Shown piece by piece: positions 953 through 26,245 of a DNA stretch of 64,000 bases. Source of the stretch: Candidatus Pacearchaeota archaeon (lineage in GTDB: Archaea > Nanobdellota > Nanobdellia > Pacearchaeales > GW2011-AR1); the NCBI GenBank assembly GCA_016204145.1, contig JACQLK010000016.1:9181-73180 (forward strand), in the 5' to 3' direction. Every line of letters starts with the position of its first letter. Positions within the stretch are counted from its first letter, which is position 1. A model generated the notes under the pieces. It was not told where the DNA came from, searched no databases, and saw only the letters and a list, made by a program, of their open reading frames with translations. The translations under genes were made by a program, and so were the position numbers.

Positions 953-1033
953 AAAAAAACACTGCTGGGAAATTAATAAGCATTGCCATTCCGCAACATA
1001 TAATTTTATAAATGAAAAACAGAAAGAAAAGTT

Positions 1034-1636
1034 ATGAATAAAGAATTGTTGATTAATGCGGTCATGTCAAGAAATCCGAAAAAAATTTTAAACAAGACCG
1101 AATGTTACGCTCTTTACGAATCCGGATTTTTTGGAAACAAGGCGCGGACATGGAATTCATACGAAGAAATTTTGAAAAGCGAATGGAAAGGCGGAGTTTG
1201 TATGCGTTCAAAAAAAGGGGTCTCAAGAAAAGAAGTCAGATACAATATTAAAATTGAAGATGTTCCGTTGCACATTGAACATTTCCAAAAGATTGGAATC
1301 CCGGAAGACATGATTTCATTCAACCAAAGCATGCCTGACAGAAATTTAATTTTGCAGGGGGAAGTCATGAACTATCAGGGAGGGATTTACCTTTTTGGAA
1401 CAATCCTTAAAAAACCGATGAATATCGCGCTGGCGGAAAAAAGCTTCATCCTTGAAAATGATGCGGCGGGACCGCTTCTTGAAAGCAGATTGAGCGCAGA
1501 GAGTTGTCGGGATTTGCAAAATCTCCTCGAAGTTTTCCCGGAGAGCGTCGTTGAATTCAGCGCATACTCTATTCCCGTCGGAAATCTCGCGGAAACGGGA
1601 AGGAACACCGTATTTTGGGAAGTGAGGAATTATTAA
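1034..1636 (+). CDS. hypothetical protein
   Basis: 200-aa ORF, no recognisable motif. Confidence 0.35.
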   Translation: MNKELLINAVMSRNPKKILNKTECYALYESGFFGNKARTWNSYEEILKSEWKGGVCMRSKKGVSRKEVRYNIKIEDVPLHIEHFQKIGIPEDMISFNQSMPDRNLILQGEVMNYQGGIYLFGTILKKPMNIALAEKSFILENDAAGPLLESRLSAESCRDLQNLLEVFPESVVEFSAYSIPVGNLAETGRNTVFWEVRNY

Positions 1637-2118: not shown

Positions 2119-2814
2119 CTATTTTGTTCTGACCAGTTGCTCAAGCATTTTCTGTCCTTCAGGCAAACTCTTAGGAACAAATATTCTAAAATCAAAATCT
2201 TCAGGAAAATGTCCCCCTATTTCCAGATTTCCTCCTCCTGCAAAAAGACGTCCGTCATAGTCAACCCCGTCGTAATAATGGTCTGAAGTATAAGATCTTG
2301 GATTTAATCCCGCACTTACCTTAAAAATTTCATATCTTCCTCCTTCAACAAATTTCCCTACAGATTCTTTTAACTTTTTCATTTGCTCTTCTCCATTAAA
2401 TCCTTCAAAATAAACCATCTGAAATCTTTCCCTTGAAAAATTTGCCGGGTTGGATTCCAATTCATATGCTTCGGGTATAACTCCTCCATGCTGATCTTTT
2501 ATGTACCTAATATTTTTAACTCTTGGTTCTCGGTCTCCGCCATTAAAATCAAGACTATAATGGGGAATGATATTTTTATTCAAAATTCTTGAAAGATAAT
2601 TCCTATATTTGTCAAAATTTTTTTTGAAAGTTTGCTCGTCCATCCTTGAGAATTCAGATCTTTCCTTCCAGAACATTTCCATTTCTGGAACTTCCAAATA
2701 AACATTTGCTGCGACTCCTTTGTCAGAAAGTAAATTCGTTACAAGAAATCTTAGAAATTCGCTTCCTCCTGAATATTTATACTTGAATTCTTTCCAAGGT
2801 TCTTTTTGTGCCAT
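2119..2814 (-). CDS. hypothetical protein
   Basis: 231-aa ORF, Gly-rich C-terminus (GGGNLEIGGHFPEDFDF), no confident family. Confidence 0.4.
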   Translation of the reverse strand: MAQKEPWKEFKYKYSGGSEFLRFLVTNLLSDKGVAANVYLEVPEMEMFWKERSEFSRMDEQTFKKNFDKYRNYLSRILNKNIIPHYSLDFNGGDREPRVKNIRYIKDQHGGVIPEAYELESNPANFSRERFQMVYFEGFNGEEQMKKLKESVGKFVEGGRYEIFKVSAGLNPRSYTSDHYYDGVDYDGRLFAGGGNLEIGGHFPEDFDFRIFVPKSLPEGQKMLEQLVRTK

Positions 2815-2874
2815 GTTTTGGTTCTAATAGAAAAAGTAAAAAAAGATTATTTAAATATTTAGACAATAAATCAT

Positions 2875-3138
2875 CTACTTCATCCCCTTAAAGTCCTTTT
2901 CGATTTTTTCAAGCTCTTTTGTTATATCTGAAACAGCGTCGTTTATCGCTTTTTTCGCGCTCTTTCCCTTTGTTCTCACAAGAAGAACCGGGTTTTTAGT
3001 CGGATGTTCCCTTCTCCATGCCGCAAAATTCACGCCGGAATCCCTGTTCAAATAAACCCTTAAAATCTCGGCGATTGTCAAATCATCGACTTCAAACTCA
3101 ATCTCGTCCTTTGAACTCTTGAGAATTTTCAATTCCAT
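2875..3138 (-). CDS. rpoL: DNA-directed RNA polymerase subunit L (Rpo11)
   Basis: 87 aa, MELKILKS..EFEVDD..EHPTKNPVLLVRTKG pattern typical of archaeal RpoL. Confidence 0.65.
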   Translation of the reverse strand: MELKILKSSKDEIEFEVDDLTIAEILRVYLNRDSGVNFAAWRREHPTKNPVLLVRTKGKSAKKAINDAVSDITKELEKIEKDFKGMK

Positions 3139-9481: not shown

Positions 9482-11941
9482 CTAAACCAAATTGTGCGTT
9501 GCGGTTAAATCCTTTTCAAACTTTTTTAATTTTTTCGGAATCTCGATTCCCGAAATTTCGTTTCTCAAGCTTATGCCTTTTTCCTTTTTCTCCTTCCAAA
9601 CCGCGCTGTTGAAGTTCATAAGCTCTTCCATCAAACTCAAATCTGATTTTCCCTTGTTGGATTTTGGAAATTCCGATTTAAGCAGATCGATTTTCGCCTC
9701 TTTTGCAATTACGCTTGAAAGCTGCGGAACAATGGGATAAATCAAAGTCAAAAATCTTTCAAGAAGAAAATGCAGTGCATATTTCGCCGAATCGCTTTCC
9801 TCTCTCGTGAATTTTTTGTTTTCGTTGTAAGCCCGCGATTTTATCATCTCGATGTAATTCGACGCAAAAACGTCCCATAAAAAATTTCTCAATTTTGTGG
9901 CGGGACGGTAAAAATCATACGAGCCGTAACAGCTGTCCGAAAACTCTGTCAAATCCTCAATATAATCTATGAAAAGTTTGTCAAGCTCGGCAAGTTTCGG
10001 TCTTGAATTTGGCTTTTCAAAGAGAAAAACAAATTTGGAAACATTGATTATTTTGTTTATCGTCTTCAGTTCTCCCCTTATTTTTTCCTCTGAACAGCTC
10101 AAATCCTGCTTTGACAAATCTCCCTCTGTCGCAGCCCACAACCTTATCGCCTCCGCCCCGTACTGCGAAAGAAGTTTCTGAGGGTCGACGACATTTCCCA
10201 GAGATTTTGACATTTTTCTTCCCTGCGAATCAAGAATGTGCTGATTTATCCAAACGTCCTTGAAGCACGGCTTTTTCGTCTCAAGATAGCCGCGAAGAAT
10301 CGTGTAATAAAGCCACGTCCTGACAATTTCCTTTCCCTGCGGTCTCAGCGCCGCCGGATAGGCCTTCTTGAAAAAATCATCGTCAGTTTTGTATTTCAAA
10401 ATAAAAAGTTCTGAAATCGACGAATCCATCCACGTGTCAAGAACGCGCGTCTCTCCCGTCCATTTTAATTTTTTGAAATCCTTAGATTTTTTTCCCGTAT
10501 GCTTTCCGCTTTTCCAAACTTCTGCATTTTCAGGAACACTTTCCTTCCACGGCTGATAATATTTTCCCGCAGGGGGAACGGCGACAATTTTTTCCCCTGA
10601 ACTCTCGGAATGCCAAAGAGGAATTTCCGTCGCGTAAAATCTCCTTCTTGAAATCGGCCAGTCTATTGAAACGGAATCAATCCAATCGATGAGAATTTTT
10701 CTCGATTCCTCCGGAAAAAATTTTATCTTTTTCGACATTTTTTTGACGTCGTTCTTGAATTCCAATTGCTTCAGATAAAATTCAGGCATTTCGATGAATT
10801 CTATTTCAGCTTTCGAGCGCTCGGAAATCGGCGTGCGATGCATTATTTTTTCCTGCTTTTGCAGAAAATTTTTTCCCTTGAGTTCTTCGATTATTTTCTG
10901 CCTCGCCTCTTTCACTTTCAGTCCCTTCAAAAATCCGGCATGCTCGTTCATTCTTCCGTCGGCGTTTATCGCGATTGTCGGCTTTATTTTCATATCCCTG
11001 AAAAATTGTATGTCTGATAAATCTCCGGCAGAGCACATCATTGCAAGCCCGGTTCCCTTGTCGGCCTGCGCGAGAGAATGCGCCTTTATCGGAACTTCTT
11101 TCCCAAACAAAGGAGTTATCGCAGTTTTTCCTTCAAGATGCCCGTATCTTTTGTCGTCCGGATTAAAAATAACCATGCTGCATGTGCAGATTAATTCAGG
11201 TCTTGTCGTCCCGATGACGATCCCCTCGCCGGTTTCCTTGACCTTCCATTTCACGTAGTTGAAATTTGATTCCAAATCCAGATAATCAATCTCGGAGTCC
11301 GCGACGGTTGTCTGCAATGCAGAATCCCAGTTATTTATTCTCGTGTCTTCGTAAATCAGCCCTTTTTTGTACAGCTCTATGAAAGTCGCCTGCGTTAATT
11401 TTCTGTAGTCCGGAGAATCGGTCATATAAACCGCTCCGATGTGATTCCCCTGCCTGTAAGATGTAAATGAAATCCCGAGCTTTGAAAAAGAACTCATGGT
11501 TTCTACGGAGGTTTCGTTCAAAAGCCTCTCGCAATATTTCAAAAATTCGCCCCTTGAAACTTTGAACGGACTCACTCCGAATTTTTTCTCGGCGCCTATT
11601 TCAATCGGCAAGCCGTTTCTGTCCAATCCCAACGGAAAAACCACTGAGAATCCCTTCATTCTTTTGTATCTGGCGAAAAAATCCATGTAGCAATATGTTA
11701 CCGACTGCCCGATGTGAACAGGGGCATTTACATACGGCGGCGGCGTGTCTATGGAATAAATCTTCTTCGTTTTTCCGCCAAACCTGAAAATCTCCGACTT
11801 TTCCCATCCATTTGTTATTTCTTTCTCGATATCGACGTTCCAGTTTTTTATCTTCCCGAATTCCATATCCGGTTGAGCAAAAAGATAATTATAAAGTTTG
11901 CCGATTTCAAAAATTTTAAAATTGCCGAAGAAACTGCTCAT
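9482..11941 (-). CDS. valS: class Ia aminoacyl-tRNA synthetase, most likely valyl-tRNA synthetase
   Basis: PPPYVNAPVHIGQ (HIGH-region variant like archaeal ValRS PPPTVSG.MHIGHA), KMSKSLGN motif; 819 aa; tRNA-Val gene also present in the window. Confidence 0.6.
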   Translation of the reverse strand: MSSFFGNFKIFEIGKLYNYLFAQPDMEFGKIKNWNVDIEKEITNGWEKSEIFRFGGKTKKIYSIDTPPPYVNAPVHIGQSVTYCYMDFFARYKRMKGFSVVFPLGLDRNGLPIEIGAEKKFGVSPFKVSRGEFLKYCERLLNETSVETMSSFSKLGISFTSYRQGNHIGAVYMTDSPDYRKLTQATFIELYKKGLIYEDTRINNWDSALQTTVADSEIDYLDLESNFNYVKWKVKETGEGIVIGTTRPELICTCSMVIFNPDDKRYGHLEGKTAITPLFGKEVPIKAHSLAQADKGTGLAMMCSAGDLSDIQFFRDMKIKPTIAINADGRMNEHAGFLKGLKVKEARQKIIEELKGKNFLQKQEKIMHRTPISERSKAEIEFIEMPEFYLKQLEFKNDVKKMSKKIKFFPEESRKILIDWIDSVSIDWPISRRRFYATEIPLWHSESSGEKIVAVPPAGKYYQPWKESVPENAEVWKSGKHTGKKSKDFKKLKWTGETRVLDTWMDSSISELFILKYKTDDDFFKKAYPAALRPQGKEIVRTWLYYTILRGYLETKKPCFKDVWINQHILDSQGRKMSKSLGNVVDPQKLLSQYGAEAIRLWAATEGDLSKQDLSCSEEKIRGELKTINKIINVSKFVFLFEKPNSRPKLAELDKLFIDYIEDLTEFSDSCYGSYDFYRPATKLRNFLWDVFASNYIEMIKSRAYNENKKFTREESDSAKYALHFLLERFLTLIYPIVPQLSSVIAKEAKIDLLKSEFPKSNKGKSDLSLMEELMNFNSAVWKEKKEKGISLRNEISGIEIPKKLKKFEKDLTATHNLV

Positions 11942-18459: not shown

Positions 18460-18627
18460 AAGAAACAGATTATCCGAAAAAGTGAATGTGCAAACCGCAT
18501 TTAAAATCCAAAAGAACATGTTTCTCAATTCCTCGCTGATGAAAAAATGTTAATATCCAATCAAACTATAACATCGAAATGTTTTTTGGAATTAACCCTG
18601 TTTCATCTGCAATAGGCAATTTTTTAT

Positions 18628-19891: not shown

Positions 19892-22612
19892 TTACCCCAA
19901 GCTCTCCTCGATTATCTTAATCTCATCTGAAGTCAAACCGTAGAGTTTGTAAACCTCGGCGTCGATTTCATAGTCAATGTTTTTTATCTGTTGTTCCAAT
20001 CTTTCTTTTTCATTTCCGGAAACGCCGGAGTCGTGATTTTTCTTTTGAATCTCAAGCATTTCATTGACGAGGGAAATGATTTTTTGTTGTTGGGGAGGAG
20101 AAACTTTCGGAATAATTATTCTTTCAGTAACGGGATTATCAAATTGCATTGTTCTTATCGCTTTTCCAAAAATAAATCTATAGGCGTACCAATTAGTTAG
20201 TTTTGAGTTAATTATCGCAATTAAGAATTCTGAAGAAAATTTATTCTTATTTTGAAGTTGATTAATTGTATCCACAATTATATAATCATTAATTTTTAAA
20301 TCATTAGATAAAGAAGCTGTTATTTTTATATGGTCAATTGGATTCTCAATGTGTGCTACTATTCTCTGAACCAAAATAGAATTTTGTTTGATAAACGCTT
20401 TTTCATCTTTAACAACTTTTTTAGATATATACCCTTTAACATCTGAAGAAATAACATATCTTCCAATTTGCATACCTCCTAAAACCATTAAATCAGATTT
20501 TTTATCTGTAACTTCTTTTTGGTAAATAGCTCCTCGCCGATTAATAATTAAATCATTTAACGAAACCCCAGAATTTTTTATTTTTCTTCCGACGTTTAAT
20601 TCTTTATCAGAAATTCCATTCAGCAAAAATCCAAACTCTTTGAAAGTTTCTTTGTTTATCTTTCCAACACATTTAATTTCTTGGTTGTCTCTTACACAAG
20701 AATTATAAAATTTTTCACTCTTATTTTTATTATAAAAATAAATAACTTGTTCAAGTTTTACTTCTTTCCAAACTTTTCCTACGTCAACAACTTCTTTTAA
20801 ACCTTGCAAAAGTTTTTCTCTTATTTCTTCCCAAGTTGAAGAATAAACAAATGGTTTAGGAATAATAAACCCATTAATTCCTTTAGAATTTAATAAATCA
20901 ACTGCAAGAGACATAAACAAACAAGCCGTATCAGTATTTCCTAATTTAAACTTCTTTTCTAATAATTCTCTATCCTTCTCTGGCAAATCCGCACCATACG
21001 GCGGATTCCCGACGACAACGTCAAATCCTCCGTTTCTGAAAACATCAGGGAACTGCGCGTTCCAATTAAACGCCTTGTCTCCCGCTACTTTTGAATCGTC
21101 AATCAAGGAGTTTCAGTTTTTTATGTTATTTTTCAAATTAGGAAGCAAAAGCTTTCTCGTCTCCCTTGTTTCTCCTTCAAGAAGTTTCAGCAGCAAATTC
21201 AACTGCGCCAGCTCAACCGCCTTCTCGTCCAAGTCAACGCCGTAAACGCATCTTGAAAGAATTGTGATTTTTTGCGCCAAATTCAACCTGTCCTCGTAAT
21301 TTTTAAAAGTTGAATTTTTGCTTTTGTCTCCTCTCTTCATTTTTTCCTCAACAGCATCGCAAACCTCCTGAAACGCGCGAATCAAAAAACTTCCGGAGCC
21401 GCAGGCAGGGTCAACTATTCTGACTTCCAATATTTCGTCAATGGATTTATCTTTTACATATTCTCCGACAGTATTTTTGACGATGTAATCCACAATGTAA
21501 GAGGGAGTGTAGTAAATTCCCATCTTTTTTCTTTTTCCGCTTTCGGAATCCAACTTTACTCTTTGTTCTGTTCCCCTCAAAACAACGCCGAGGTATTGCT
21601 CATATATGCTCCCGAGCAAATCGCCGGGAATCTCGTCAAACATATATCGCGACTGCTTATTTTCCACGCCAAAATAAAGAATTTTTATTATTTTTTCCAA
21701 ATTCTCATCATCTAAAAAAATATTTTTCTCATCTTCAAGTATTCCCGAAGAAAATAATTTTGAATTGTATGATTTGTCAAAAATCTTGAACTGTTCATCC
21801 AATGCAGGCCACAATTTCACCTTTAATCGGCCTTCTCGTGAATCCTTGACAAGTCCAAGCAAAAAATTCTGATTCTCCAATCCCCTGTCTTCGGCGGAGC
21901 GCATAAAAATCAACCTATCAATTAAAATCTGTATCGCCTCGTCTATCTGCTCGTCTGTCAGATAATTCCTTAATTTCTTCAAATCGTTGGAGAGCAATCT
22001 TCTTATTTCAAGCAAATCGGCTAAAATGCTTTCGTCAACCGGGACAAATTGCTTTTCGTCTTTTTTTGATAAAAGTTTATTTATTTCTTGTTTTTCAAAA
22101 CTTTCCCTTGAAATAAGCCACAACTTGTCAAATTCTTTTTCAAAATCCTTAAACTCAAGCCAGAATAATAAATTCTTGTCTATGTTTTTTATATTTGAAA
22201 GCGCGTGATAAACCCTGAAATATTTAAAATTAGTAAGAACCGAAAATTTTATTTTCCTGTGGTAGGCGTAAGAAACCGCCTGTCTTCCCTCGTCTTCCGA
22301 TAAAGAAACATTTGTTTTTTTCGCCTCAACAACCAAGCTTTCCTGATTTCCGATTCTTAAAATATAATCCGCCCTTCCTTTAAGCACTCTTTTTTCTTTT
22401 GAAATATCTTCCCTATTCCAGCCCAATGCTTCAAACAGCGGCTCAATGAATTGAAATTTTATATCTTCCTCAGGCATTGAATCCAATTCGCTCTTTGATT
22501 TCAGCGAAAATTTGCGGACTATCTTTTCTACTTCTAATTTCGCTTCTTCCTTAGTTGTCATTTTATATTTTTTTGAAAAGCACCTCCGCCTTCTTAATTT
22601 TATTCGTCTCAA
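19892..22612 (-). pseudogene. Type IIG restriction-modification fusion enzyme (PD-(D/E)xK nuclease + gamma-class N6-adenine methyltransferase + TRD) interrupted by one in-frame TGA at 21113..21115
   Basis: N-terminal GRADYILRIGNQESLVVEAKK (D..E.K nuclease motif), motif I VDPACGSGSFL, then TGA, then in the same frame motif IV VVGNPPYG; listed halves 21113..22612 and 19892..21106 are separated by only two codons. Confidence 0.7.
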
Positions 22613-23948
22613 ATATTTTATTAATCTTCTCCGACGTTTGCGGAATGAACGGCGAAAGATAAAAACTTATTTTTCTTATCGCTTCAACCAATTCAAACAA
22701 AACTTTTTTGTCATGCGTCTCCCACGGCTTTTTTTCCTGAACATATTCGTTGCAAATATCAACAAAAGCAAAAATTTCATTCAGCACTTTGTCAAGCTCG
22801 TAATTTTCAAAATGATTTTCAATTTCTTTTTCCTTAAATTTTTTCATCAAATCGTTTTGCGTTTTCTCAATCCCGTATTTTTCCGCCAGCGCGCTCACGC
22901 GCGAAACGAGATTTCCCAGCTTGTCCGCGAGCTCGTTGTTATGCCTGTCAACAAGCGCGGTTCTTGAAAAATCCCCATCTTCACCGAAAGGCACGCTTCT
23001 CATCAAAAAATATCTCGCCGAATCCAAGCCCGCGAGCGAAACCAGCTCGTCGACGTTTATCACGTTTCCCGTCGTCTTTGAGATTTTCTCGCCTTCAATC
23101 GTCAGCCATCCGTGCGCGAAGACATTTTTCGGCGGCTTGATTCCGGCAGAAAGAAGAATCGCGGGCCAAATCGCGGAATGAAACCACAAAATTTCTTTTC
23201 CCATCAAATGCAAATCCGCGGGCCAGAATTTCTCTTTTCCTTTTTCCCTCGTCGCGGAGTAATAATTCGTCAGCGCGTCAAACCAAACGTAAGCGATGTG
23301 TTTCTCGTCAAACGGAAGTTTTATTCCCCAGTCAAAGCTCGTTCTTGAAATGCTCAAATCCTGCAATCCCCCTCTCACCCTGTTGATAATTTCCATCTCC
23401 CTGCTTTTCGGAAGGATGAATCCTTTCTTGTAAAGCGCGAGGAGTTTTTTCCGGTATTTCGAAAGTTTGAAAAAATAACTTTTCTCTTTTAATTTCTCGG
23501 CTTTTATTTTATGCACGGGACAAAACCCGTCAACCAAATCTTTCTCCGTGTAATATTGCTCGCAAGGAGTGCAGTAAAATCCCTCGTATTTCCCGAGATA
23601 AATGTCTTTTTTATCATAACACTTTTGCAATATCTCTCTGACAACTTTCTCGTGGTCCTTGTCCGTCGTTCTTATGAATCTGTCATAATCAACATTTAAT
23701 TTTTTCCAATCATCTTTGTATTTTTTCACAAGTTCGTCTACAAATTCCTTCGGCTTCTTCCCTTGTTTTTTCGCCGCGCTTTCAATTTTTTTTCCGTGCT
23801 CGTCTGTTCCCGTGAGAAAAAAAACATCCTCTCCTTTCAAGCGGTGCCATCTCGCCAAGATATCTGCCGCTATCGCGGTGTAAGCGTGCCCCACATGAGG
23901 GATATCATTCGGATAAAAAATCGGCGTCGTGACGTAAAATTTCTTCAT
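22563..23948 (-). CDS. metG: methionyl-tRNA synthetase (catalytic core, no C-terminal tRNA-binding domain)
   Basis: PIFYPNDIPHVGHAYT (HIGH), KISKT (KMSKS variant), CxxC knuckles (CTPCEQY..CPVH). Confidence 0.85.
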   Translation of the reverse strand: MKKFYVTTPIFYPNDIPHVGHAYTAIAADILARWHRLKGEDVFFLTGTDEHGKKIESAAKKQGKKPKEFVDELVKKYKDDWKKLNVDYDRFIRTTDKDHEKVVREILQKCYDKKDIYLGKYEGFYCTPCEQYYTEKDLVDGFCPVHKIKAEKLKEKSYFFKLSKYRKKLLALYKKGFILPKSREMEIINRVRGGLQDLSISRTSFDWGIKLPFDEKHIAYVWFDALTNYYSATREKGKEKFWPADLHLMGKEILWFHSAIWPAILLSAGIKPPKNVFAHGWLTIEGEKISKTTGNVINVDELVSLAGLDSARYFLMRSVPFGEDGDFSRTALVDRHNNELADKLGNLVSRVSALAEKYGIEKTQNDLMKKFKEKEIENHFENYELDKVLNEIFAFVDICNEYVQEKKPWETHDKKVLFELVEAIRKISFYLSPFIPQTSEKINKIFETNKIKKAEVLFKKI

Positions 23949-24113: not shown

Positions 24114-24506
24114 TTAAATGGCGTATTCGTAAGAATCAGCGACATATCTCTCTATGCTCCCGACTTTTCTTTCATACAACTCGCGTTCCTGCCTTGTAAC
24201 TTTTCCCGTCTTTGTCCAGTCAATCAAATCAATTCGAGCTGAAGTGTCAAAACTAACAAGAAGATATTTTAGTCGGGAATTTGCAACTTTTCCTTCAACA
24301 TAATCTCTTACTATATCCACGCTAAATCCTCTTTCCTGGATTTGTTGAAAAATCCTTTCACAAGTTGCTTTTCTTTTTTTATCGTCCACAACAACCAAAT
24401 GGTACCTTGCAAGCGCGGGATTGTCTGGAGATTGTTGCCAATTCCACAAAACATGTCTGCTTCCGGCGGAAATTTTTTTAAGGGCATATAAATTAACTTT
24501 TCTCAT
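24114..24506 (-). CDS. hypothetical protein
   Basis: 130-aa ORF. Confidence 0.4.
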   Translation of the reverse strand: MRKVNLYALKKISAGSRHVLWNWQQSPDNPALARYHLVVVDDKKRKATCERIFQQIQERGFSVDIVRDYVEGKVANSRLKYLLVSFDTSARIDLIDWTKTGKVTRQERELYERKVGSIERYVADSYEYAI

Positions 24507-24557
24507 AGATTATAAAAAAAGATAGTTATAAAAATTTAATGAAATTGAAGCTCTGGT

Positions 24558-24727
24558 GCGGCTTTGGTCTAATGGCATGACGTCACCTTCCCATGGCACT
24601 TTTCACTGAAGGTGAAAAAGGCATAAGCGGAATTCGCAAGAATTCTGGCTACGAGCATTTTTTCAGAAAATGCGGAAATGATTCTCGGAAAAAGGTGGCT
24701 GCGCGGGTTCGATTCCCGCAAGCCGCA
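24558..24727 (+). tRNA. intron-containing tRNA, anticodon probably CCC (Gly); ~98-nt intron at canonical 37/38 position (approx 24594..24691)
   Basis: acceptor GCGGCTT/AAGCCGC, T-arm GCGGG-TTCGATT-CCCGC, anticodon stem TCACC/GGTGG only pairs across a ~98-nt insert; intron contains cGGAATTCgcaaGAATTCtg hairpin with GNRA loop. Confidence 0.6.
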
Positions 24728-24730
24728 TAA

Positions 24731-25426
24731 ATGCACAAACTATTTAAACGACTTCATATTATTTTGGAAATGTTCGGAAATTTTGGAAAGAGAGAGTGCA
24801 AAAGGTGCGGCGAAAATTCAAGCAACAAGCATAATTTCTGTCCTAATTGCGGAGTGCCTTTCAACAACAAGAAAACAAAAAGAAACGATTTCGGAATGCT
24901 CGGAGAAAGCGATTTTGACGAGGCAGGGGAATTTCAAAATCCGTTTTTTGGCGGCCTTGCGGGGGGGATGATAAATAAAATGTTTGAATCCGCCGTGAAA
25001 ATGTTTGAAAAAGAAATGGAAAGGGAAATGAAAAGGGGAATGCAAAATCCGAGGACGAATTTCCAGCTTTTCATAAACGGCAAGCCGGTAAAATTTGAAA
25101 ACGCTCCGGGGCAAAGAAATTTTGAAGGGAGAAGAGCGGAAATCCAAAATAGCGCCCTCCCAAAAAACAATCTTAAAGATTTCCCGTCTCTTCCGAAAAA
25201 AGAGCCGACCACGGAAGTCAGAAGATTCTCAAACAAGTTGATATACGAGATAAATCTTCCAGGCGTAAAATCTGACAAGGACATTTCAATTGTGAAACTC
25301 GAAAACAGCATCGAAATAAAGGCCGTTGCGGGCGACAGCGCGTATAAAAAAATAATCCCGATAAATCTTCCCGTCACGAATTACAATTTGTCAAACGGAA
25401 AACTCGTTCTTGAACTCGGGGAGTAA
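24731..25426 (+). CDS. small heat-shock protein (Hsp20/alpha-crystallin domain) with N-terminal zinc ribbon; true start may be 24770
   Basis: CKRCG..CPNCG then C-terminal EVRRFSNKLIYEINLPGVKSDKDISIVKLENSIEIKAV..NGKLVLEL. Confidence 0.7.
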   Translation: MHKLFKRLHIILEMFGNFGKRECKRCGENSSNKHNFCPNCGVPFNNKKTKRNDFGMLGESDFDEAGEFQNPFFGGLAGGMINKMFESAVKMFEKEMEREMKRGMQNPRTNFQLFINGKPVKFENAPGQRNFEGRRAEIQNSALPKNNLKDFPSLPKKEPTTEVRRFSNKLIYEINLPGVKSDKDISIVKLENSIEIKAVAGDSAYKKIIPINLPVTNYNLSNGKLVLELGE

Positions 25427-25877: not shown

Positions 25878-25983
25878 ATTTGAACCATTGAAAGATACTT
25901 TATAATAATTATTGTGCTAAATTTATTTTCTGCAAATTCAGTTTTTCTACCGTTGTAGTTTCTTTTTTCTAAAAAGAAACCAA

Positions 25984-26058
25984 TGAGCCTGCAAGGATTT
26001 GAACCTTGGACCCCTGCCGTATCAGAGCAGTGCTCGTACCAGGCTGAGCTACAGGCTC
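25984..26058 (-). tRNA. tRNA-Ile (anticodon GAT)
   Basis: cloverleaf folded by hand: acceptor GAGCCTG/CAGGCTC, D GCTC/GAGC, anticodon stem CTGCT/GGCAG loop CTGATAC, T-arm CAAGG-TTCAAAT-CCTTG, 75 nt. Confidence 0.9.
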
Positions 26059-26245
26059 ACACTAAAGACAAAAACAAAAGCATTTTAAAGGTTTTCTTAA
26101 AAATCCCAATCTTTAAAAAGCGATTTTTTCTACAAGTGTTATGAATAAATTAAATTTTCCGCACTTGACCGAAAGGAAGGTTAAGCGAAGAGAACTAAAA
26201 GGAGAGTTAAGCTAAGGGAAACTTGGTTCCCTAGCGTGTCTCGCA

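Follow-up and report, generated by a model that had tools for sequence, protein, structure and literature searches.

A very probable tRNA-Gly(CCC) gene with a 99-nt archaeal intron at position 37/38 in a Candidatus Pacearchaeota genome

The window that we analysed is a stretch of 64,000 nucleotides (nt) from a Candidatus Pacearchaeota archaeon, and the subject of this study is a transfer RNA (tRNA) gene on its forward strand at 24558-24727 that is interrupted in the anticodon loop. The Rfam tRNA covariance model matched exactly these positions with 45.4 bits over the full length of the model and with an insert of about 100 nt in the anticodon loop (gathering score 29; E value 1.9e-06 for the whole window against all families), in agreement with the original prediction, made from the letters alone, that a tRNA gene is located here. 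ARAGORN with default settings missed the gene. The neighbours of the gene are archaeal and encode ribosomal protein L15e, an ATP-dependent DNA ligase and methionyl-tRNA synthetase (MetRS). The MetRS (22563-23948, reverse strand), a class I enzyme, is 100% identical to a protein of 'Candidatus Pacearchaeota archaeon' at NCBI, and its next-nearest relatives belong to other Pacearchaeota, Nanoarchaeota and DPANN bins from groundwater and sediments.

Exon 1 (24558-24593) within the Rfam match contains the acceptor strand GCGGCUU, the D arm, the anticodon stem strand UCACC and the loop nucleotides U32 U33 C34 C35 C36 A37. Exon 2 (24693-24727) begins with A38 and continues with the stem strand GGUGG, which starts at G39, the variable loop CUGC, the T arm GCGGG-UUCGAUU-CCCGC, the acceptor strand AAGCCGC and the discriminator base A73; the 3' CCA is not encoded by the gene. 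The acceptor strands, the T arm and the discriminator base were all found as originally described, and UCACC and GGUGG indeed pair only across the insert. The intron occupies 24594-24692 at the canonical position 37/38, and its removal produces a 71-nt tRNA with the anticodon loop UUCCCAA. The original prediction had the intron at this site and with this 5' edge, although the extent given there (about 98 nt, 24594-24691) was one nucleotide too short. By sequence alone the boundaries could be shifted by 1 nt (A37 is the same base as the last base of the intron), and the geometry of the bulges described below fixes the placement. Removal of 98 nt would leave an anticodon loop of 8 nt; the orthologues that have no intron carry the 7-nt loop UUCCCAA, and therefore the intron is 99 nt, not 98 nt.

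We looked for orthologues on the contigs that carry the two nearest relatives of the MetRS (88% and 84% identity), in 80 MetRS loci of a metagenome scan and in three further look-ups, using ARAGORN -i and a covariance model of spliced tRNA-Gly(CCC) sequences. MetRS identity exceeded 80% in just two lineages, and the three relatives that were looked up in addition had no intron, a 20-nt intron and no gene, respectively. The custom covariance model recovered the orthologues, with the two genes of the longest introns split into half matches; the model is unsuited to long introns.

In about 25 related contigs, a tRNA-Gly(CCC) gene lies upstream of MetRS in divergent orientation, and the sequences show directly whether it carries an intron and how long that intron is. 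The gene has no intron at loci L131, L138, L148, L157, L158, L165, L175, L181, L196 and L208, and the tRNA of L197, which is cut by the contig end, is uninterrupted through the anticodon loop. At the same site as in the window, introns of 18 nt (L172), 20 nt (L134, L209), 36 nt (L001, L002), 56 nt (L143), 58 nt (L173, L191/L192) and 90 nt (L006) were found, and all introns at this tRNA-Gly locus end with GGAA-NN/A, where the slash marks the 3' splice site. In L127, L128, L147 and L207, with MetRS 78-79% identical, the tRNA-Gly(CCC) gene is missing from the syntenic intergenic region, and it appears to have been moved or lost in these genomes.

When the spliced window tRNA was aligned with the intron-free tRNAs of L157 and L158, 64 of the 71 positions were identical without a gap and the loop was again UUCCCAA, which is invariant in 14 of the 14 aligned sequences. 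Because the syntenic intron-free orthologues, which have the same exons, carry this loop, the anticodon is CCC, as was first proposed together with glycine as the amino acid; tRNA-Trp(CCA), which had been offered through a one-nucleotide register shift, and the tRNA-Phe(AAA) of ARAGORN are both excluded by the orthologues. C34 C35 C36 follow U33 in a 7-nt loop, and the first acceptor pairs are G1-C72, C2-G71 and G3-C70. These three pairs, together with C35 and C36, agree with what is generally known of glycine identity.

The cloverleaf was evaluated in 14 orthologues that were either intron-free or spliced in silico. Paired cells in the stems amounted to 98%, compared with 75.6% in shuffled controls and 32-42% in slid controls, and compensatory changes were found in 12 of the 21 pairs and in all four stems. 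The anticodon stem was 100% paired with compensatory changes in 4 of its 5 pairs, and in six of the sequences this stem is formed only across the intron. Upstream of the gene we found a TATA-box-like element (TTATAAAAA, 24526-24534, forward strand) centred about 28 nt before tRNA position 1, which is a putative promoter element. A 47-nt block around this element is identical at 40 of 47 positions upstream of the L006 tRNA and at 38 of 47 positions for L001. No second tRNA-Gly(CCC) was found within the 64-kb window by Rfam or ARAGORN -i.

From these sequence comparisons we consider it highly probable that this Candidatus Pacearchaeota (DPANN) archaeon has, at 24558-24727, a functional tRNA-Gly(CCC) gene with a protein-spliced 99-nt archaeal intron at position 37/38. 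The intron is an ordinary, though long, representative of a known class, the protein-spliced archaeal tRNA introns.

The canonical splice motif of archaeal tRNA introns has a central helix and 3-nt bulges, and the cut is made after the second bulge base on each side (PMC4090602, and general knowledge). In the precursor of the window gene, U32 U33 C34 C35 (24588-24591) can pair with GGAA at 24687-24690 to form a 4-base-pair (bp) central helix stacked on the anticodon stem. The 5' bulge would be CA/U (C36 and A37 of exon 1 and the first U of the intron, 24592-24594), with a predicted cut between 24593 and 24594, and the 3' bulge would be AA/A38 (24691-24693), adjoining the pair C31-G39, with a predicted cut between 24692 and 24693. 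An outer helix (the anticodon stem), a central helix of 4 bp and two 3-nt bulges that hold the splice sites, as in a bulge-helix-bulge (BHB) motif, are thus present. With only the anticodon stem, the two bulges and the UUCC:GGAA helix imposed, the folding energy was -61.1 kcal/mol, compared with a minimum free energy of -61.9 kcal/mol, a cost of 0.8 kcal/mol. Of the 9 distinct orthologue sequences with an intron, 8 can form the UUCC:GGAA helix, with one mismatch in L173 and one variant of L001 not folded separately. This central helix has no scope for covariation, as the invariant anticodon loop supplies its 5' strand.

Several results weigh against the reading as a spliced tRNA-Gly(CCC) gene. 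The inner helix (h') has only 2 bp (G24595-C24686 and G24596-U24685), and forcing it costs 7.7 kcal/mol (-54.2 versus -61.9 kcal/mol); the motif may be a relaxed one, with the 5' splice site in a larger loop. A naive search for the BHB pattern matched 14 places in the precursor of 170 nt, against about 11 in shuffled sequences. ARAGORN -i recovered the same 170 nt (region 24557-24728 of the window), put a 99-nt intron at position 33/34 and called a tRNA-Phe(AAA), a miscall repeated for L006 and L172; the intron ends in a run of A, which makes its placement ambiguous to the program.

Since about 11 matches to the pattern occur per shuffled sequence, the BHB motif alone is no evidence, and the weight comes from the position and the orthologues. 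The best instance of the motif, with 6 outer and 2 inner pairs, is located exactly at the intron site that the orthologues define, and the inner helix in the orthologue introns is of 0-3 bp. Given the weak h' in the folding model, a relaxed splice motif is probable. Numerous disrupted tRNA genes, along with EndA variants that bear an extra loop, have been reported from DPANN genomes, one of them a Pacearchaeota genome (PMC5829648). A relaxed motif in the window would fit with this extra loop of the DPANN EndA, which is associated with more disrupted tRNA genes (PMC5829648).

The proposed processing follows general knowledge of archaeal tRNA splicing as to the enzymes, the cleavage chemistry, the circularisation and the expression. 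Transcription would start from the TATA-like element at 24526-24534, with a leader that is probably almost absent. In the precursor, the anticodon stem would stack on the 4-bp helix between U32-C35 and the GGAA of the intron 3' end, and the stacked helices would place both splice sites in the 3-nt bulges CA/U and AA/A. The archaeal splicing endonuclease EndA would cut after 24593 and after 24692, and an RtcB-type ligase would join the exons and would probably also circularise the intron. After splicing CCA would be added, and the product would be a 71-nt tRNA that decodes GGG codons. The body of the intron most likely folds on itself, which would hold the intron ends close and avoid mispairing with the exons.

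Compared with the canonical archaeal introns at 37/38, which have a BHB motif and are processed by EndA and an RtcB-type ligase, the window intron has the same position, the same 4-bp pairing of the anticodon loop with the 3' end of the intron, and the same 3-nt bulges. Its removal leaves a precise 71-nt cloverleaf, and intron-free orthologues exist. Reported archaeal tRNA introns span 11-129 nt and have medians of 12-25 nt, the exception being those of tRNA-Trp, which nest a C/D RNA (PMC4090602). The window intron is within the range of 11-129 nt (PMC4090602), but far above the usual median. It also differs in its weak 2-bp h' and probably relaxed motif, and in its host, a DPANN archaeon, for which few such genes have been described individually.

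The interior of the intron is predicted to be structured. Folded by itself, the intron reaches -28.1 kcal/mol (z = -3.2), which is more stable than expected by chance, and 2 of 200 shuffled sequences were as stable. In the predicted fold, hairpin H1 (24600-24618) is an 8-bp stem of UUUUCACU and GGUGAAAA, and its loop region has the sole CUGA of the intron. Hairpin H2 (24626-24650) consists of the core GGAAUUC-GCAA-GAAUUCU (24629-24646) with a GNRA loop, which is the GAATTC-GCAA-GAATTC hairpin originally pointed out, and of an AGC/GCU extension. Hairpin H3 (24655-24673) is GCAUUUUU-UCA-GAAAAUGC, with a 7-bp stem that is identical in the L006 intron, where the loop alone differs. A weak hairpin H4, GGAA-AUGA-UUCU (24674-24685), which includes the string AUGAUU, appeared in the constrained fold only. 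The body of the intron (H1-H3) appears to be without a recognisable functional RNA. No direct repeats or internal duplication were found within the intron, and no copies of the intron were found elsewhere in the 64-kb window. Positions 21-35 of the intron (GAAAAAGGCATAAGC) have an exact 15-nt match at 9569-9583 on the reverse strand, in an open reading frame (ORF) of 819 amino acids and in the mRNA sense; with a BLAST E value of 0.004, it was taken as chance. A group I self-splicing intron was also considered and rejected, as 99 nt compares with a core of about 200 nt or more and no Rfam match was found at the gathering threshold or at E values up to 10.

The 3' part of the intron, H3 and GCGGAA...GGAAAA (24650-24692), has a clear homologue in L006, where it forms the 3' end of the 90-nt intron. 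The final 43 nt of the window intron aligned with the final 42 nt of its L006 counterpart with a local score of 48, compared with 18.3 +/- 3.5 for shuffled sequences (0 of 500 reached it), and 25 of 28 positions in the core and 34 of 44 in the block were identical. For the other blocks of the two loci, the identities were 40/47 in the promoter, 4/19 in the leader, 23/37 in exon 1, 19/57 in the 5' half of the intron and 24/35 in exon 2. The exons of the window are of a type (GCGGCUU...) common to the more distant relatives L157, L165 and L175 (86-90% identity), and the closest MetRS relatives L001 and L006 carry another exon type (GCAUCAG...) with 63-65% identity to the window.

We searched for the H3 pattern (GCATTTTNNCAGAAAATGC) in the genome collection and found at least 120 matches, nearly all of them bacterial, and the few archaeal ones among the matches listed were not from DPANN. 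With GCGGAA added to the pattern, the search among the loci returned only L006 and two bacterial chance matches. The 3' module was not found elsewhere in the window, in other archaeal loci or in viral contigs, and in these data it occurs in two sequences only, those of the window and L006.

A second family of introns was found in two tRNA species. The 58-nt introns of the tRNA-Gly(CCC) genes of L173 (gene at 2443-2571, reverse strand) and L191/L192 (gene at 2332-2460, reverse strand) are clearly homologous to the 62-nt intron of the L006 tRNA-Ile(GAU) gene (979-1117, forward strand), with a core GGUUCUCCUNACAYUACCUCUC and a local score of 42 compared with 14.5 +/- 3.2 (0 of 500 shuffled sequences). 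An intron family spread over different tRNA species is what has been described as intron transposition in Thermoproteales (PMC4033280). In the window, the tRNA-Ile(GAU) gene at 25983-26059 on the reverse strand is intron-free. Many of its orthologues (compared in L006, L139, L147, L156, L159, L175, L194, L198 and L206) have introns of 20-75 nt at 37/38 with a CUGA:UCAG central helix, and ARAGORN -i mislabels several of the intron-bearing ones as tRNA-Ala(ggc) or other species.

Fragments of tRNA genes were also observed at the tRNA-Gly locus of relatives. In L157 (about 1800-1889), L158 (about 175-264) and L165 (about 2250-2408), all on the reverse strand, a complete tRNA-Gly(CCC) of the GCGGCUU type is directly adjoined at its 3' side by a 19-nt piece (TCAATTCCCGGCTGGTGCA), in one or two copies, from the 3' end of the tRNA-Gly allele of the other type. 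In L006 (about 2850-2935, reverse strand), CCCGGCTGATGCA occurs a second time, 57 nt downstream of the tRNA. Judged from their sequences, these repeated 3' fragments look like scars of integration or gene replacement at the locus. We also tried a candidate scar of the other allele in the window, TCAATTCCTCGCTGATGAA at 18525-18543 on the forward strand, and rejected it: it has 3 mismatches to the 3' fragment of that allele (0.02 expected by chance), is without the neighbouring T-stem sequence and is upstream of the tRNA, and it is probably a chance match.

One explanation of the shared 3' module is that the intron is spliced and that the module persists or moves independently, either because it is selected in a stable circular intron RNA, or because it has been moved between tRNA-Gly alleles by transposition or recombination. 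We regard this explanation as rather unlikely, and it is compatible with a functional gene and a protein-spliced intron. It draws on the module shared with L006, which none of the 500 shuffled sequences matched, while the exons, the leader and the 5' half of the intron are far less alike; on the exons of the window being of the allele type of the distant L157, L165 and L175; and on the second intron family common to Gly(CCC) of L173 and L191 and Ile(GAU) of L006. Intron transposition among tRNA species has been described in Thermoproteales (PMC4033280). On the other hand, the promoter block is equally conserved (40/47), so that plain descent of the locus with exon replacement or fast change explains the pattern equally well, covariation is untestable in a module that occurs in two sequences only, and the searches of the window, other archaeal loci and viral contigs gave no further copy. 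The pattern of the window and L006 may have arisen when recombination at an integration hot spot replaced the exons, or when intron sequence passed from one allele to another.

Set against the transposed introns of Thermoproteales (Fujishima et al. 2010, as relayed in PMC4033280), related introns are likewise found here in tRNA genes with differing exons (the Gly alleles of the window and L006, and the Gly genes of L173/L191 and the Ile gene of L006), and the presence and length of introns likewise shift quickly between close relatives. The differences are that all introns here are at the canonical site with one per gene, that the lineage is DPANN, and that the window intron shares only its 3' 43 nt, with one other gene.

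If the inserted DNA were never spliced out, the locus would be a dead, disrupted tRNA-Gly(CCC) gene. The instability of the locus speaks for this, with 3' tRNA fragments beside the gene in relatives and the loss of the gene in L127, L128, L147 and L207, as does the incomplete strict motif (hBHBh'). However, the insert is exactly at 37/38 and ends with GGAA-AA/A like all introns at the locus, both exons are intact and 90% identical to those of intron-free orthologues, every stem pairs, the promoter block is conserved, and the 64-kb window has no other tRNA-Gly(CCC). A dead gene is very unlikely on this evidence.

The intron might instead nest a box C/D guide RNA, as in euryarchaeal tRNA-Trp, which would direct 2'-O-methylation of its own tRNA or of another RNA. 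The box D- and C-like fragments that suggested this idea do exist, CUGA at 24606-24609 and AUGAUUC at 24678-24684, although they are not above the level of chance, and every defining feature of a box C/D RNA that was tested fails. Such an RNA has a C box (RUGAUGA) towards its 5' end and a D box (CUGA) towards its 3' end, which can form a kink-turn. The length of 99 nt resembles that of the C/D-bearing tRNA-Trp introns (PMC4090602), and the L006 intron starts with UUGAUGA, a perfect C-box string, yet it has no CUGA. In the window intron, no hexamer is within one mismatch of UGAUGA, and the sole CUGA (intron positions 13-16) is within H1 and in the wrong order, as it precedes the C-like AUGAUUC; if the intron were circular, AUGAUUC and CUGA would be 20 nt apart across the junction, and not about 12 nt. 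A search for guide complementarity between the intron and the tRNA, as proposed originally, gave one notable match, of 8 nt: the 3' strand of H1, GAAGGUGA (24608-24615), is perfectly complementary to 24583-24590 of exon 1 (tRNA positions 27-34). This match is about at chance level (about 0.2 such matches expected), and it is downstream of and overlaps CUGA, whereas a guide would have about 10-12 nt directly upstream of a D or D' box. No motif or C/D-like pair is conserved across the 9 intron variants, and the Rfam scan of 24480-24800 with E values up to 10 found the tRNA only, plus chance-level matches outside the intron. Compared with the tRNA-Trp(CCA) intron of the Haloferax volcanii type, the window intron is likewise long (about 65-105 nt in that type), at 37/38 and next to a C-rich anticodon, but it is without C, D, C' and D' boxes in the right order and spacing, without a guide upstream of a D box and without a match to an Rfam C/D family, and its tRNA is Gly(CCC), not Trp. 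Such a guide RNA is highly improbable here.

There is next to no chance that the gene encodes a different tRNA, either Phe(AAA) with the intron at 33/34, as ARAGORN -i called for the window and for L006, or Trp(CCA) by a shift of one base, given the UUCCCAA loop of intron-free orthologues with the same exons, the C in place of the U33 that must immediately precede a CCA anticodon, the acceptor pairs and C35 C36 that suit glycine, and a pattern search that found no BHB site supporting 33/34. To our knowledge, a Phe tRNA with A34 is not a normal archaeal species.

Mechanically called ORFs run across and beside the tRNA-Gly(CCC) gene. Those at 24569-24736 on the reverse strand and 24678-24971 on the forward strand are spurious, as was originally noted for the ORFs over the tRNA. 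The mechanical ORF of the downstream zinc-ribbon protein (24731-25426, forward strand) begins over its own likely TATA box (CTATTTAAAC, 24741-24750), and the conserved N-terminus of the relatives (MFG...C..C) points to the ATG at 24772 as the true start. On the other side of MetRS, at 19892-22612 on the reverse strand, an MmeI/Eco57I-like restriction-modification enzyme is split in two adjacent ORFs, one of 499 amino acids (the N-terminal part and the start of the methylase) and one of 404 amino acids (the Eco57I methylase part). The upstream ORF of the two overlaps the 3' end of the MetRS gene by 50 nt, the G+C fraction falls to 0.34, and relatives have other genes after MetRS; the split gene may have been inserted and disrupted.

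The tRNA-Gly(CCC) gene is an annotation trap, as default bacterial-mode finders miss it and the intron-aware ARAGORN gives the wrong anticodon (Phe-AAA). A DPANN genome annotated in this way would seem to be without tRNA-Gly(CCC), or to have a nonsensical tRNA. The gene itself does nothing new, and it offers a modest lead on the turnover and possible mobility of introns in DPANN archaea. The locus documents very fluid tRNA introns in DPANN, as one syntenic locus has, among close relatives, either no intron or an intron of 18 to 99 nt at the same site. If the 3' module does persist or move independently, protein-spliced tRNA introns would be mobile or exchanged by recombination in Pacearchaeota, extending the phenomenon of Thermoproteales to DPANN, and the tRNA-Gly locus with its apparent integration scars would be a natural place for studying intron gain.

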